In this document: positions 2,674 to 52,814 of the stretch, one piece after another | Numbering within the stretch: the first letter of the stretch is position 1 | Layout of the letters: each line of letters opens with the position of its first letter | Assembly (NCBI GenBank): GCA_035506195.1 | Contig: DATJPV010000036.1 | Coordinates: 16,100 to 80,099 of the forward strand | Direction: 5' to 3' | Length of the DNA: 64,000 nt | Origin: Patescibacteria group bacterium | Lineage (GTDB): Bacteria; Omnitrophota; Gorgyraeia; Gygaellales; Profunditerraquicolaceae | The notes under the pieces: model-generated | Seen by the model: only the letters and a program-made list of their open reading frames with translations | Databases searched by the model: none | Told to the model about the DNA's origin: nothing | Translations under genes and position numbers: made by a program

Positions 2674-3953
2674 CCCAGCTTATCTACGCCCAGAAAAAGA
2701 TCATTACCTCCCTCATGAAAAGGATCAGCCGCGCAGAAGGGATAGACGCCGAAGACCTCTGCCGGCGCCTTGCGCAGGGGCAGGTTGTCATTCCGCACAA
2801 TAACCGGCGCCGGATCCAGAACCCCTGCGCCGTCGGGTGTGGCTTGGCCACTAAGATAAATGCGAACATCGGCACTTCCACCGATCGCTCGTCACTGGTG
2901 GAGGAACTGAAAAAGCTTAAGGTAGCCGTCAAATACGGCGCGGACACCGTGATGGATTTAAGCGTAGGCCCGGATATCCCTTTGGTGCGCCGGCAGATAC
3001 TCAAATACTCTCCGGTGCCGGTGGGGACCGTACCCATCTATGAAACGGCAGTAGCCGTCAAAAAACAAAAAGGGGATGCCTTGCGCTTTGACGCCTCCGA
3101 TATCCTGGAGGTCTTACGGGCCCAGGCTGAAGACGGAGTCGATTTCTTTACCATCCACGCGGGGGTTACCCGCAAGAGCCTGGCGGCTATAAAACGCAAT
3201 AAACGGGTCATGGGCATTGTTTCAAGGGGAGGGGCGATCCTGGCGGCCTGGATAGAGCTTCACGGAAAAGAAAATCCGTTTTTTGAATATTTCGACCAAA
3301 TCCTGGATATCGCCCGGCGCCATGACGTAACCTTAAGTTTAGGGGACGGCCTGAGGCCCGGTTCGATATTGGATGCGACGGATAAGGCGCAGATCGCAGA
3401 GCTAAGGATCCTGGGCGAGCTGGCGCAGAAGGCCAGGAGAGAGGGCGTGCAGGTCATGATCGAAGGCCCCGGCCATGTGCCTCTGAGCGACATCAAGAAG
3501 AATATTCTGCTGCAAAAAAAGATATGCCATCAGGCGCCGTTCTATGTATTAGGGCCGCTGGTTACCGATGTCGCCGCCGGTTACGATCACATTACCTCGG
3601 CTATCGGAGGCGCCCTTGCCGCAAGCTACGGGGCTGATTTCCTTTGCTATGTGACTCCCGCGGAGCACCTGCGCCATCCGACTGTCGACGATGTCCGCGA
3701 AGGCGTGGTGGCTGCCAAGATCGCTGCCCACGCCGCCGACATAAGCAAGGGCATCAAATCCGCGCTCCTTTGGGACAGACGCATGTCGGACGCCCGAAAG
3801 GCGCGCGACTGGAAGAAACAGGTTGCGCTTGCGCTGGACCCTGACCGCGCGCGCCAGTACCGGATGTCTTCGCGCCCGCAACTGTCCGACGTCTGCACCA
3901 TGTGCGGGGATTACTGTTCGATCCGGATGACGGAGAAGTGCCTTGGGATGTAA
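2670..3953 (+). CDS. thiC: Phosphomethylpyrimidine synthase ThiC (short anaerobic form)
   Basis: ThiC core with C-terminal CTMCGDYCS Fe-S motif. Likely start is MTQL at 2670 inside the longer ORF 2655..3953. Confidence 0.9.
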   Translation: MTQLIYAQKKIITSLMKRISRAEGIDAEDLCRRLAQGQVVIPHNNRRRIQNPCAVGCGLATKINANIGTSTDRSSLVEELKKLKVAVKYGADTVMDLSVGPDIPLVRRQILKYSPVPVGTVPIYETAVAVKKQKGDALRFDASDILEVLRAQAEDGVDFFTIHAGVTRKSLAAIKRNKRVMGIVSRGGAILAAWIELHGKENPFFEYFDQILDIARRHDVTLSLGDGLRPGSILDATDKAQIAELRILGELAQKARREGVQVMIEGPGHVPLSDIKKNILLQKKICHQAPFYVLGPLVTDVAAGYDHITSAIGGALAASYGADFLCYVTPAEHLRHPTVDDVREGVVAAKIAAHAADISKGIKSALLWDRRMSDARKARDWKKQVALALDPDRARQYRMSSRPQLSDVCTMCGDYCSIRMTEKCLGM

Positions 3954-3966
3954 CGATGTAGGATAT

Positions 3967-4037
3967 GCGAGAGTAGTTCAGTGGCAGAACACCAGCTTCC
4001 CAAGCTGGATATGGGGGTTCGATTCCCCTCTCTCGCT
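3967..4037 (+). tRNA. tRNA-Gly (anticodon CCC)
   Basis: Cloverleaf by eye: acceptor GCGAGAG/CTCTCGC, anticodon stem CCAGC/GCTGG, loop TTCCCAA, T-loop TTCGATT, discriminator U. No encoded CCA. Confidence 0.85.
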
Positions 4038-4047
4038 TTGACTGCGT

Positions 4048-4734
4048 ATGATGCCAGATAAAAGACCAGCCTTGCCTGTAAAAACGTATGCGATATCCGG
4101 CATCATGTGCATTTTGATGGTATCCGGCTGCGCCAGTACTCCGATGGTAGTTTCACCCAAGCCGGAAGGGGTCTCCGGGGTGTATCACCGGGTGGAAAAA
4201 GGGCAGACCTTGTGGATGATCTCCCGGATCTACAATATGGACGTGGAAGAGCTGGCCAGGGTCAACCGCATATCGGATACGGCCAAGGTCGAAGCCGGCC
4301 AACAGGTTTTTATCCCCTTTGCCCAGAAGCCCTGTCCGGTCCCGGAGAAGAACCTCGGCGGCGGTTTCATCTGGCCGCTGAAAGGCAGGGTCGTCGGCGA
4401 ATTCAGCCAGACCTACGCCAATATGATCAACAAGGGCGTCAATATTCAGCCGTATTCGGGCAACACCGAGGTAGTCGCCAGCCGCAGCGGCCGGGTAGTG
4501 TTCTATGCCCCCGACTTCGACGTCTATGGTAAAACCGTTATCCTTGACCACGGCGACGGCTTCATGACGGTATATGCCCGCAATGCCGAAGTGTACGTCA
4601 AACCGGGCGACCGGGTCGAGAAGGGCAATGTCATTGCCCGGGCTGGTTCTGCCGGAAGGGACAAAGCCGTGTACCTGCATTTCGAAATACGCAAGGGGCG
4701 CCTGCCCCAGAACCCTAATTTTTATCTGCCATGA
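4048..4734 (+). CDS. LysM + M23 peptidase lipoprotein (NlpD-like)
   Basis: Lipobox MVSGC, a LysM motif (GQTLWMISRIYNMDVEELARVN) and an M23 core (ILDHGDGFMTVY...YLHFEIR). Confidence 0.85.
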   Translation: MMPDKRPALPVKTYAISGIMCILMVSGCASTPMVVSPKPEGVSGVYHRVEKGQTLWMISRIYNMDVEELARVNRISDTAKVEAGQQVFIPFAQKPCPVPEKNLGGGFIWPLKGRVVGEFSQTYANMINKGVNIQPYSGNTEVVASRSGRVVFYAPDFDVYGKTVILDHGDGFMTVYARNAEVYVKPGDRVEKGNVIARAGSAGRDKAVYLHFEIRKGRLPQNPNFYLP

Positions 4735-11845: not shown

Positions 11846-12931
11846 ATGAAAATCGTAAAAGTCGATTTAAAAGACAGATCGTACCAGGTCCTTATCGGCA
11901 GCCATGTCCTTGATCGCGCAGGCGCGCATATCCGCCGTCTGGGAGCGGGCAAGGATGCCTACGTGATTACGAATGCCCTTGTCTATAAGGCATATGGACG
12001 CCTTCTGCATAAGGCTCTCGTTTGCGAGGGGCTATCAGCAAAGTTCAAGTGCATCCCGGATACCGAAAAAAGCAAATCCTTGAAACTGGCTACTGCCTTG
12101 CTTGAAGATATCGCCCGCTACGATAAGAAGCGCCAGTTGTGTATCGTTGCATTTGGCGGCGGAGTGGTCGGTGACGTGGCGGGTTTCGTAGCTTCGATTT
12201 ACAAGCGCGGGGTCCCTTATGTGCAGGCCCCCACGACGCTCCTGGCGCAGGTCGATTCCGCCATCGGCGGAAAAACCGCAGTCGACCTTGCCTGCGGCAA
12301 GAATCTGGTAGGCGCGTTCTATCAGCCTCGCCTCGTCATCTGCGATGTCGCGCTCCTGGAAAGCCTGCCGGCGGTGCAGCTGGCAAGCGGAATGGCGGAG
12401 GTAATCAAGTATGCGGCCATTAAAGACAAAGGGTTGTTCGGCTATTTGGAAAAGAACCTCAGCCGCATTCTGGACCGCGATCCCGGTGCCTTGGCGCACG
12501 TCGTAACCCGCTGCGCCCTGATCAAGGCGCGTATTGTTTCCGTAGACGAAAGGGAGGAGAAAGGGCTGCGTACGATCTTGAATTTCGGGCACACTATCGG
12601 CCATGCCATCGAGACGGCCGGAGGCTATGCAGGCCACAACCACGGCCAGGCAGTGGCGCTGGGGATGCTTGTCGCCTGCGCGATCAGCCGGCAGTTGCGC
12701 CTGCTTGACGGATCCGCAGCGCGCAGGGTCGAAAGCCTTATCCGCAAGGCTGGGCTACCCGTTGGTATAGGTAAGATCCCCCTGGCCGGCATCATCAACG
12801 CGCATTATCATGACAAAAAATTTACGGGAGCCCGCAACAGGTTCGTGCTACTGAAAGCTATCGGGGCTGCCGTGGTCCGCCGGGACATTCCTCTGGGATT
12901 GATACGTCAGGCAGTTAAAGGCAGGTTGTAA
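11846..12931 (+). CDS. aroB: 3-dehydroquinate synthase
   Basis: GGGVVGDVAGFVAS glycine-rich NAD motif and the overall DHQ synthase signature. Confidence 0.9.
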   Translation: MKIVKVDLKDRSYQVLIGSHVLDRAGAHIRRLGAGKDAYVITNALVYKAYGRLLHKALVCEGLSAKFKCIPDTEKSKSLKLATALLEDIARYDKKRQLCIVAFGGGVVGDVAGFVASIYKRGVPYVQAPTTLLAQVDSAIGGKTAVDLACGKNLVGAFYQPRLVICDVALLESLPAVQLASGMAEVIKYAAIKDKGLFGYLEKNLSRILDRDPGALAHVVTRCALIKARIVSVDEREEKGLRTILNFGHTIGHAIETAGGYAGHNHGQAVALGMLVACAISRQLRLLDGSAARRVESLIRKAGLPVGIGKIPLAGIINAHYHDKKFTGARNRFVLLKAIGAAVVRRDIPLGLIRQAVKGRL

Positions 12932-51700: not shown

Positions 51701-51881
51701 CAACGCCGACGGAGAGTTCAAGTTCGAATCCCTGGCGCCGGGGCACTATGCCCTGTCGATCTCCCCGGACGGGATCCCGACGGGTTATGAACTTACCTCC
51801 AAATCGGAAATAAAAATGGACCTGGCCGCAGGGGCACAGGTCCATGATACCAACTTTGCTCTCAAGCTTTCTACCCGCTAA
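48783..51881 (+). CDS. Large outer-membrane protein: TPR-like N-term, Pro/Ala linker, Cu-amine-oxidase-N1-like domain, beta-barrel-like region, two C-terminal CnaB/SdrD-B-like beta-sandwich domains (usher-like domain order)
   Basis: Signal peptide MMGGQWPKIKKVAALAVAAVFLVSHCGFAG. A TPR-like segment (GRYADALHEFHKALMLNP), ISLFINGQEVSLEEAVLFKDGQILVPLKAIAP, about 530 aa rich in alternating Y/S/T/N/G, then two copies of GRVF.D.N.NG..D..E.G. The ORF track also starts in-frame at 48642. Confidence 0.5.
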   Translation: MMGGQWPKIKKVAALAVAAVFLVSHCGFAGVVPGAMAADYLFEVGKHFYDQGRYADALHEFHKALMLNPVHKEVLRYIGLITGAAQEVYMEKGVAVGAEAPGAPRPKRAVSPVGTPLITMPGQAPAVAPAVLPKPQKSREQSLAEALNAQEAAVHPGPQVPAKPVAPVVVPRAAVTPAPAVPAAKEEAAETEGPRLNLSAIQPAAVKKAGEISLFINGQEVSLEEAVLFKDGQILVPLKAIAPKLYYNLLDLQGGKFSLINPEGKARDIAAVLQDGKPMLDEGQIREYFSARTRYDAQAKAFYIDTQASQGLKLYVLERPPEEIQKEAQQQKVIAQATAVPEKPSVIPDAARPSLDVRGNLNYTYFKYHVLPVYHDLSSSLYGRLYDYNLAYRSEYKDINGPVKNDYTTMSLSKPGIYYGFFDQSADLYPLRLQSSEFTGIKVVRSRNELTNTTLWGGQTENTIAGTSGSVKYLGKLFGASQDFSPIYWLHLKGGMLYTDNTADQPSQVGTTSYPRQNFVTYSNIALQLPQSTTLTLSGAHCYYYPDYAPDSVAIQDWDWRIGTNTNKPRYSLGFAYERVGENYVSIGDSGIYQDYQGWDLYGGWRPTDHWSIFTNASQYHDNVSDDPQSVTTYASNYGLSSAYRITGDQTVNLMYNHFVSNPEGPAAGPSGVSNVYRIDYFLPLFYQVRGSLNYALTHSDSGGSFDYDAPSIGGTLFRSFGQGSSWYLSQQATNTLYRNRPDSHDYTTTFNLYYAINPLLAAYFNASYVRNDTDGAHSTNQLSGALGTRYSLFPDTTLSFEYSINSYDLRTERDRWPKSWSMLFYVAQGFQIKTSPNFGTLEGRVFQDLNDNGRWDSGEPGVEGALVYLDDRREATTDARGYFKINYMNPIPQKVYLDLATVPPEWMTAQTEQWVQVKPRRASTVVFALRKAAGIKGRVFVDQNGDGIFQETEEPLESVVLKLSPGDHITQTNADGEFKFESLAPGHYALSISPDGIPTGYELTSKSEIKMDLAAGAQVHDTNFALKLSTR

Positions 51882-51884
51882 CCT

Positions 51885-52106
51885 CTAGTTCTTCGCATAC
51901 GCGACCTGCGTATCCTCCTGTTGGTTCTGTTGCTCGGTTTTTTCCTCCTGCACAATCTGGGTTTGCGTTGCCGTCTCCCGCGCAGGGATGATGATGATGA
52001 CGGTGGCAGTAGCGCTTGCCTGTCCGGCATACACACAGTGGACCGGGATGCACAAAGATGCGAGCGTTGCGAATACGAGTATAAAGACTGTCAGTGTCTT
52101 TTTCAT
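51885..52106 (-). CDS. Small secreted peptide (73 aa) with donor-strand-like ATATVIIII motif and Gln/Glu/Thr-rich tail
   Basis: Strong ribosome-binding site AAGGAGG. Signal peptide ending VYAG. Mature N-terminus QASATATVIIIIPA resembles subunit 1 (TSTATATVTATV). Convergent with the outer-membrane-protein gene. Confidence 0.55.
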   Translation of the reverse strand: MKKTLTVFILVFATLASLCIPVHCVYAGQASATATVIIIIPARETATQTQIVQEEKTEQQNQQEDTQVAYAKN

Positions 52107-52471: not shown

Positions 52472-52726
52472 TTGAATCTCCTATATAATGAAAACGGCCC
52501 CGTTACATTTCTGGGGCCGCATAAAAAACCCTAAAGAGGTCTTTAGGGTTTTTCTCCTCTTTGGCAGCTCAGCCTCCCGCTTGCGCGGGACTGTAGCTTT
52601 GCGCCCCAGCATTACTGCTAGTTAGCCTTTATCAGTAGGTCTTCCTAATTGTCAATTCAAGTATAGCACATTGTGGTAAGATTTCAAGGTTGCCAAAAGA
52701 TTTTTTTTACATTTTACAAATTGCGC

Positions 52727-52781
52727 AAAAAACCCAGACCGTTTCTGGTTTTTTTAAAAACCAGAAACGGTCTGGGTTTTT
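52727..52781. repeat. Perfect 55-bp palindrome = two back-to-back hairpin+T-tract units (bidirectional terminator-like)
   Basis: AAAAAACCCAGACCGTTTCTGGTTTTTTT | AAAAACCAGAAACGGTCTGGGTTTTT; each half contains a CCAGA-CCGTT-TCTGG hairpin. Confidence 0.7.
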
Positions 52782-52785
52782 GGGG

Positions 52786-52814
52786 TTGACTTTTTGCGGA
52801 AAGGGTGTTATGAT
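52786..52814 (+). promoter_or_regulatory. Putative sigma70 promoter (extended -10) for gatCAB
   Basis: TTGACT (52786-52791), 17 nt, TGtTATGAT (-10 at 52809-52814). AAGGAG ribosome-binding site before the gatC ATG. Confidence 0.55.

Follow-up and report, generated by a model that had tools for sequence, protein, structure and literature searches.

An inverted repeat upstream of gatC as a probable copy of a dispersed REPIN-type repeat family

Positions 52727-52781 of the stretch analysed here (64,000 nt of contig DATJPV010000036.1, hereafter the window) are occupied by a conspicuous palindrome, AAAAAACCCAGACCGTTTCTGGTTTTTTTAAAAACCAGAAACGGTCTGGGTTTTT, located just upstream of gatC, the first gene of gatCAB. 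The divergent intergenic region that holds it is 374 nt long, and the palindrome sits inside a gap of about 98 nt between two diverging promoters, one for gatC and the other for the leader of a cyclic di-GMP (c-di-GMP) riboswitch. We propose that the palindrome is probably one copy of a dispersed family of repetitive extragenic palindromes (REPs), arranged as the kind of inverted, hairpin-forming REP doublet known as a REPIN (PMC3337134), that this family is linked to a transposase resembling the REP-associated tyrosine transposases (RAYTs), and that it is not a control element specific to gatCAB. We call the family to which the repeat unit belongs family 1. The features of the locus, some of which are also found in contigs L022 and L023 of a sister lineage, are listed below.

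51885-52106, minus strand: open reading frame (ORF) of 73 amino acids (aa) that follows the 87-aa ORF; conserved in L022
52208-52471, minus strand: 87-aa ORF downstream of the riboswitch; conserved in L022
52524-52553, minus strand: riboswitch terminator hairpin with an A-tract-CCC...GGG-T-tract frame and perfect arms of 14 nt
52560-52637, minus strand: c-di-GMP-I riboswitch aptamer (RF01051, 64.2 bits against a gathering score of 35)
52660-52687, minus strand: divergent promoter TTGAAA-N16-TATACT, which drives the riboswitch leader; conserved in L022 and L023
52727-52781, no strand assigned: probable REPIN-like inverted doublet of the family-1 unit (perfect inverted repeat, fold z-score, same unit elsewhere)
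52727-52755, plus strand: left repeat unit, A6 CCCAGACCGTTTCTGG T7, itself a small hairpin (CCAGA, CCGTT loop, TCTGG); nhmmer unit match, E = 1e-10
52755-52782, minus strand: right repeat unit, in inverted orientation; nhmmer unit match at 52782-52755, E = 1.2e-10
52786-52814, plus strand: gatC promoter TTGACT-N17-TATGAT, with a TG upstream of the -10 element (TGT-TATGAT); kept in lineages at 86% and 60% GatC identity
52846-53133, plus strand: gatC, first gene of gatCAB (PF02686, 73.9 bits)

Structure and setting of the inverted repeat

The palindrome is an inverted repeat with arms of 26 nt each (52728-52753 and 52756-52781), 100% complementary, around a 2-nt TT centre. A first-pass annotation, made from the sequence of the window, had described a perfect 55-bp palindrome with 27-bp arms, built from a quoted 29-mer followed by its exact reverse complement. 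The full complementarity of the arms stands, but these measure 26 nt, the 55-mer is not exactly self-complementary (its ends are A6 and T5 and its centre is T7A5), and the full reverse complement does not follow the 29-mer. The small hairpin CCAGA-CCGTT-TCTGG is present in each half as described, with an A-tract on one side and a T-tract on the other, and the symmetry was rightly taken as no accident, since only about 1e-10 perfect inverted repeats of 26 nt with a spacer of up to 12 nt are expected by chance in 64 kb; the runner-up perfect hairpin in the window has arms of only 14 nt. The palindrome folds with -43.8 kcal/mol as RNA and with -30.2 kcal/mol as DNA, in both cases with z = -9.4 and with none of 200 shuffles as good. 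An assembly artefact is excluded, because an independent JGI contig (L001) carries the identical sequence over the entire intergenic region. Another contig of the same locus, assembled with MEGAHIT (L002; ENA ERZ27256510 k141_5280058), ends at window position 52718, 9 nt short of the palindrome, and other k141 contigs, for example L038, assemble across doublets; the break could reflect a polymorphism for presence or absence of the element, or merely low coverage. No Rfam family covers the palindrome, and the c-di-GMP-I riboswitch is the sole Rfam match in its neighbourhood.

The doublet is upstream of the gatC -35 element, at a distance of 4 nt, and covers approximately -40 to -93 counted from the gatC start and -75 to -128 counted from the riboswitch transcript; an AAGGAG ribosome-binding site lies between the gatC promoter and gatC. 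The palindrome is upstream of both promoters, and no identified transcription unit reads into it. The orthologous site has been compared in relatives at two distances. L022 and L023, whose GatC is 86% identical, are syntenic and have both promoters conserved, the segment with riboswitch, terminator and promoter (window 52516-52690, minus strand) being 100% nucleotide-identical while the flanking coding DNA has visibly diverged. At the position of the palindrome these contigs have only GCAAAAAAACCC|GGGTTTTTTTGC, that is, A7CCCGGGT7, and the difference from the window amounts to exactly the inner 38 nt, AGACCGTTTCTGGTTTTT-TT-AAAAACCAGAAACGGTCT, centred in a shared frame of A-tract-CCC and GGG-T-tract. 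This indel leaves both promoters conserved, so that the doublet is dispensable for them. In L024-L028 (GatC about 60% identical) the gatC promoter is kept and there is no palindrome. The promoter motif TTGACTTTTT..AAAGG.TGTTAT.AT is retained (L022, L024, L026, L027, L028) even in relatives whose GatC identity is about 60% and whose GC content is much lower, 36-40%. Loss of the top of the hairpin in the sister lineage, by deletion or excision, is slightly favoured over a centred insertion in the lineage of the window, because the outer frame belongs to every family-1 copy; an excised or empty allele at 52700-52800 would read ...AAAAAACCC joined directly to GGGTTTTT.... A search for further A(n)CCCGGGT(n) footprints returned only the gatC site of L022 and L023.

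These observations bear on the proposal, made in the first-pass annotation, that the palindrome is a bidirectional terminator selected at this locus to insulate gatCAB from the riboswitch and its accessory genes. Its terminator-like character stands: a terminator scan flags the palindrome on both strands (T5 on the plus strand, T6 on the minus strand), the hairpin is very stable, and related copies occupy terminator positions. Read-through towards gatC on the plus strand is also conceivable, since no terminator hairpin is found between the stops of a 1079-aa gene and the convergent 73-aa ORF. At 51881-51885 this plus-strand gene, which has TPR and SdrD_B domains, and the minus-strand ORF meet with 3 nt between their stops. 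The locus-specific part of the proposal fares badly. Both divergent promoters point away from the doublet, which is upstream of them, and the riboswitch terminator at 52524-52553 is itself already of a bidirectional form. Moreover, sister and outgroup lineages keep the promoters without the doublet, and the same sequence recurs at no fewer than nine unrelated loci. A dedicated insulator is very unlikely, and the recurrence of the unit at other loci largely refutes it.

Copies of family 1 and their positions

The family-1 unit, A4-6 CCCAGACCGTTTCTGG(G) T4-7, is about 27 nt long (26-29 nt) and consists of an A-tract, CCCAGA, a CCGTT loop, TCTGG(G) and a T-tract. Its core of 16 nt is invariant, and CCCAGACCGTTTCTGG is identical in all doublet units. 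Doublets measure 53-69 nt and always present a unit followed by an inverted unit, with spacers of 0, 0, 1, 1, 2, 3, 13 and 18 nt in the eight cases found; singlets also exist. On either strand the fold energies are -35 to -42 kcal/mol for doublets and -12 to -13 kcal/mol for singlets. A metagenome scan with a 20-mer from the arm led to five further contigs with differing flanks, four of which (L003, L004, L005 and L007) carry the same inverted pair in wholly different surroundings; the tetranucleotide correlation with the window is r = 0.92-0.97 for L003, L005 and L007. The fifth contig, L006 (VAPH01062049), has a lone match at its end, lacks an A-tract and a partner and gives r = 0.70, and we have treated it as chance. 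A hidden Markov model (HMM) of the unit found an extra singlet on L004, nine units on L038 (four doublets and one singlet, five elements within 10.8 kb) and three singlets on L029; L038 and L004 are 99.8% identical over 3763 nt.

The identical core is present in contigs of one and the same environmental lineage at nine or more intergenic sites that are unrelated to each other: nine elements in contigs of the window lineage (one each in the window, L003, L005 and L007, and five on L038), to which the three on L029 are added. The first-pass annotation had itself noted that multiple genomic copies would make the palindrome a repetitive extragenic element and not a locus-specific regulator, and the same unit has been found at nine or more other loci. 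In the window, with up to three mismatches allowed, there are two unit matches only, those of the one pair, and no copies inside genes. Among GTDB representative genomes the 18-mer AACCCAGACCGTTTCTGG gives 14 single matches in unrelated phyla, with about 17 expected by chance; none of the 14 has a partner arm, and only one (L011) has a T-tract after the match. Since these matches are at chance level, the GTDB representatives do not include the source species, and family 1 is confined to a lineage absent from them. A scan of viral contigs gave two single matches of chance type. No duplicated motif that would point to a target-site duplication is common to the flanks of 12 elements, although the A- and T-tracts could mask a short one.

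All family-1 elements are intergenic or overlap only stop codons and gene 3' ends. Outside the window, they are placed as follows.

L003, doublet: between two diverging consensus promoters, as in the window
L005, doublet: 8 nt past the stop of a plus-strand ORF and 4 nt past the 3' end of a minus-strand tRNA-Leu(CAA), in convergent arrangement
L007, doublet: 9 nt past tRNA-Leu(CAG)
L038, 3855-3908, doublet: 12 nt past the stop of a GH57 gene
L038, 4621-4689, doublet: overlaps the 3' end of a transposase gene
L038, 6505-6559, doublet: 10 nt past the stop of a ParA-like gene and 4 nt ahead of a nitroreductase ATG
L038, 7060-7087, singlet: overlaps the nitroreductase TAA
L038, 9527-9579, doublet: 18 nt past the stop of a small ORF and 5 nt ahead of a TTGACA -35 element
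L029, three singlets: each is adjacent to a stop codon or overlaps one

Seven of the nine elements in window-lineage contigs thus begin no more than 20 nt from a stop codon or from the 3' end of a tRNA-Leu, and the orientation of singlets relative to the upstream gene is identical in all four cases. This pattern matches the distribution, mostly at gene 3' ends, that is given for REPs in PMC3733652. Most other members of the family lie where a transcription unit ends, whereas the window copy does not. Two of the L029 singlets (2094-2127 and 12162-12190) encode the last codons and the stop of a PHP-domain gene and of a PEP-CTERM-type gene. On L003 (5508-5690) no more than 6 and 10 nt separate the two divergent consensus promoters that enclose the doublet from their ATG codons, an arrangement that suggests leaderless or near-leaderless mRNAs.

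Two further functions may be considered for the symmetry itself. Perfect dyad symmetry, an AT-rich centre (T7A5) and a place between divergent promoters, where negative supercoils should gather according to the twin-domain model, would suit a dimeric regulator that uses the palindrome as its operator, or a cruciform through which supercoiling links the promoters. Binding of a protein to the palindrome, also raised in the first-pass annotation, is unlikely given that the half-elements are separated by anything from 0 to 18 nt and that singlets exist; some copies follow tRNA genes or separate ORFs in tandem, the orthologous promoters (L022/L023, L024-L028) lack the element, and there is no associated regulator gene. 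We consider either form of this explanation highly improbable, extrusion of a cruciform at the palindrome being possible in its own right.

Inverted pairs of DNA uptake sequences (DUS) and uptake signal sequences (USS) double as terminators in Neisseria and in the Pasteurellaceae. Family 1 resembles the Neisseria DUS and Haemophilus USS pairs in being a repeated motif, conserved in sequence and not only in structure, that forms terminator-like hairpins as inverted pairs. But uptake sequences occur about once per kb, and the window has one pair in 64 kb, a density lower by orders of magnitude, with no intragenic copies; the association is with a transposase instead of competence, a link to which we know of none for the family-1 unit, and the RAYT association explains the conservation of sequence. 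An uptake signal is for these reasons scarcely credible here.

Transposase genes and related repeat families

L038, identified by way of a protein clustering with the L004 nitroreductase, has a Y1_Tnp gene (3961-4665, 234 aa) between two family-1 doublets, one upstream (3855-3908) and the other over the 3' end of the gene (4621-4689). The upstream doublet is followed by a GTTAGATT leader that is common to all the RAYT loci considered here. The best NCBIfam match of the protein is to the REP-associated tyrosine transposase (REP_Tyr_transpos, 68.4 bits, versus 26.7 for IS200), and the HUH motif and the tyrosine are conserved. Likewise, the Y1_Tnp protein of L029 (195 aa) scores 61 bits as a REP-associated tyrosine transposase and 19.9 as IS200. 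It is the combination of multiple copies with an invariant core, the coexistence of doublets and singlets, and a RAYT-like gene between family-1 doublets that leads us to the REPIN-type reading.

RAYT homologues are common among Omnitrophota metagenome-assembled genomes (MAGs). On L029, L031 and L038 the RAYT gene is single-copy and syntenic, in a block formed by GH57, RAYT, a gene of 191-199 aa, a ParA-like gene and, further on, the nitroreductase. The repeats that flank it differ. Two other families are defined by their cores, CCAGAACGCTTCTGG for family 2 and GGGGACGTTCCCC, with GGGGAC..GTCCCC, for family 3. The L029 RAYT has family-2 clusters on both sides, and family 2 is found there in nearly every intergenic gap (26 units in 12.5 kb); the L031 RAYT is flanked by family 3 (GGGGACGTTCCCC / GGGGACAGGTCCCC), that of L032 by family 2 and that of L033 by AAAAGGGGACGTTTCTCTTTTTT. 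The cores CCAGAACGCTTCTGG, GGGGACGTTCCCC and GGGGACGTTTCT are related REP cores that flank syntenic RAYT genes of related lineages. Being flanked by other families, P0186 (L031), P0187 (L032) and P0189 (L033), homologues of the L029 RAYT, were discarded as the cognate RAYT of family 1. None of 120 RAYT homologues scanned had a C-terminus that translates a family-1 unit. The reading frames of the RAYT genes continue into the repeats that follow (L038 4600-4665, L029 6640-6679, and also on L031 and L032), so that their C-termini are translated units: KTQTVSGF on L038, GEKRS on L029 and L032, and GDVP on L031.

The flanking repeat family changes together with the RAYT sequence. The RAYTs of L038 (3961-4665), L029 (6092-6679) and L031 (486-1124) are 50-54% identical, versus 88-90% for the neighbouring nitroreductases, and this divergence reflects either rapid co-divergence of REPs and RAYT or replacement of the transposase in place. 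The sites flanking the nitroreductase gene are occupied by family 1 on L038 and L004 (L038 6505-6559 and 7060-7087), by family 2 (GAACGCTTC) on L029 and L030 (L029 8919-8965 and 9465-9515; L030 744-790) and by family 3 on L031 (3300-3375 and 3880-3935), and the nitroreductases of L030 and L031 are 99.4% identical; the comparison suggests that one REP may replace another at fixed sites beside this gene. A single family-2 cluster occupies the same site in three lineages (L038 7761-7805, L029 10183-10230, L031 about 4640-4680), including lineages whose RAYT now sits between family-1 or family-3 repeats, and looks like the relic of an older family.

It could be argued that intrinsic terminators are being copied without any RAYT, by gene conversion, hairpin recombination or fold-back inverted duplication, and that the RAYT of L038 is a coincidence in repeat-rich DNA. 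The units do have full terminator anatomy and terminator positions; L029 has singlets of family 1 even though another family flanks its RAYT; a probably orthologous site holds a singlet in L029 and a doublet in L004 and L038; and one repeat family takes the place of another at shared intergenic sites. Nevertheless, family-1 doublets lie on both sides of the L038 RAYT, exactly where the RAYTs of sister lineages carry their own families, and the RAYT sequence and its flanking family change together. Copying of this kind is, on balance, an unlikely account of family 1.

Comparison with known systems and proposed origin

REP-RAYT and REPIN systems have been described in Pseudomonas fluorescens SBW25 and in Escherichia coli, in the latter as REPs and bacterial interspersed mosaic elements (BIMEs) with the transposase RayT/YafM/TnpA-REP (PMC3116915, PMC3337134, PMC2817692, PMC3479197, PMC5581495). 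Family 1 shares with them a unit that is short, imperfectly palindromic, dispersed and extragenic; inverted doublets that fold, with their spacer, into one long hairpin and coexist with singlets; one Y1/HUH transposase gene that has the same repeats on both sides and whose place, conserved in synteny, seems to have been inherited vertically; and the presence of several repeat families per clade. It differs in that each unit has its own A-tract and T-tract, and hence the full anatomy of a bidirectional Rho-independent terminator in every copy. RepRanger sets REPs apart from Rho-independent terminators by the T-rich tails of the latter (PMC12306157), and family 1 would be filtered out as terminators by this tool because its units end in T-tracts. 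Moreover, the doublets are 53-69 nt long as against about 89 nt in SBW25, and the host is an uncultured Omnitrophota-like lineage; our literature searches found no paper linking Omnitrophota with REPs or RAYTs.

Several points weigh against the REPIN-type reading. The family-1 unit lacks a GTAG or CGTC head, the nearest sequence being CGGTC in the stem and loop; this head tetranucleotide, GTAG or CGTC at the foot of the hairpin, is part of the definition of REPs in PMC3733652. The RAYT-like proteins score 61-68 bits, under the curated NCBIfam cut-off of 80 (for IS200 the scores are only 16-27). What ties L038 to the window is no more than the shared repeat, the sample series and a modest similarity of composition (tetranucleotide r = 0.79), and an hmmsearch for RAYTs in six-frame ORFs of the window and of L003-L007 found none. 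One copy in the 64-kb window implies that the copy number may be modest across the genome. The outgroups L024-L028 are unalignable upstream of the -35 element and do not settle the direction of the indel at gatC. Finally, mobility and termination are both read from sequence, no transposition, excision or termination event having been observed. Even so, the REPIN-type reading remains the probable one.

Three other classes of element invite comparison. Part of the literature on tyrosine transposases describes TIRYTs, or 'TIRtrons', flanked by repeats with GGGGWSAS (Di Nocera 2013, PMC3733652). The families of the sister lineages (GGGGACAGG..., GGGGACGTTCCCC on L031 and GGGGACGTTTCT on L033) resemble this motif and are moderately abundant, as dimers or clusters, but the window family CCCAGACCGTTTCTGG fits it poorly, and its relationship to them runs through the synteny of the transposase and not through the repeat sequence. 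Ordinary intrinsic terminators share with family 1 a design that can be read from either strand (A-tract, stem with GC, T-tract) and the location right after stops or tRNA 3' ends that most members have; unlike family 1, whose stem and loop are identical at every site, they are unrelated from one site to the next, and the window copy ends no transcription unit. Miniature inverted-repeat transposable elements (MITEs) such as Correia or NEMIS are likewise small, non-autonomous intergenic repeats able to carry promoter or terminator activity, but family 1 is much shorter, has neither terminal inverted repeats around a unique interior nor a recognisable target-site duplication, and its enzyme is a Y1 HUH and not a DDE transposase.

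By analogy with TnpA-REP of E. coli and with IS200/IS605, we suggest that the RAYT may spread family-1 copies in trans, with single-stranded hairpin DNA as its substrate; TnpA-REP is the basis, by homology, for RAYT action on single-stranded hairpins (PMC3479197). In a transcribed copy a strong hairpin with a U-tract after it would arise whichever strand is read, and the copy could serve as a bidirectional intrinsic terminator or 3'-end stabiliser, an activity that would account for most copies abutting stop codons or tRNA 3' ends. The copy at gatC would be transcribed from neither promoter, because it lies within the gap of about 98 nt between them, and is most likely a tolerated passenger; at most it may act as a back-stop against stray read-through, for example by plus-strand transcripts of the upstream 1079-aa gene, which would encounter the riboswitch terminator first and the doublet second on their way to the gatC promoter, or as a cruciform that absorbs supercoils.

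A possible but doubtful elaboration is that family 1 is a RAYT-dispersed 'mobile terminator' with its own A- and T-tracts, that REP families replace one another at fixed sites, and that the gatC copy and A7CCCGGGT7 represent a filled site and the footprint of its excision or deletion. Each insertion would then install a working bidirectional intrinsic terminator or 3'-end stabiliser, and the families CCAGAACGCTTCTGG, GGGGACGTTCCCC and CCCAGACCGTTTCTGG would replace each other while the syntenic RAYT diverges fast. Such replacement at shared sites would mean, if it is real, that hairpins already in place are targeted or converted by new REPs.

Under the REPIN-type reading a tempting but wrong annotation of the palindrome as a dedicated gatCAB regulator is removed, and a REP-RAYT system is documented for an uncultured Omnitrophota-like lineage. 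Striking perfect palindromes in MAGs should accordingly be tested first as REP or REPIN copies. The family-1 units are built like Rho-independent terminators, the very feature that current tools use to tell terminators from REPs; if they truly terminate transcription, a transposase would be distributing ready-made operon boundaries. The occurrence of differing REP families at the same sites in close relatives also offers a natural system for the study of REP-RAYT co-evolution.

Some minor features of the locus deserve mention. The riboswitch terminator has the frame A6CCC...GGGT5, in a form that is bidirectional, and the organism therefore uses an A-tract-CCC...GGG-T-tract terminator architecture. 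Only two A4+CCC...GGGT4+ hairpins occur in the window, this terminator (52523-52553) and the doublet, about 175-200 nt apart. The two share a ...GGTCT... segment, the match of the unit HMM to the terminator is very weak (E = 5.6), and their likeness is probably a coincidence of terminator format. Neither the 87-aa nor the 73-aa ORF matches a Pfam family above the gathering threshold, the 87-aa product having only a weak, sub-threshold match to DUF4272. The source MAG (HTY45650.1 / HTY45651.1, VMD52_06655) is labelled 'Patescibacteria group bacterium' by NCBI. The GC content of the window (55%) and its gene content are not like those of the candidate phyla radiation (CPR), and the named relatives of GatC, the nitroreductase and the RAYT all belong to Candidatus Omnitrophota, in the Planctomycetes-Verrucomicrobia-Chlamydiae (PVC) group.

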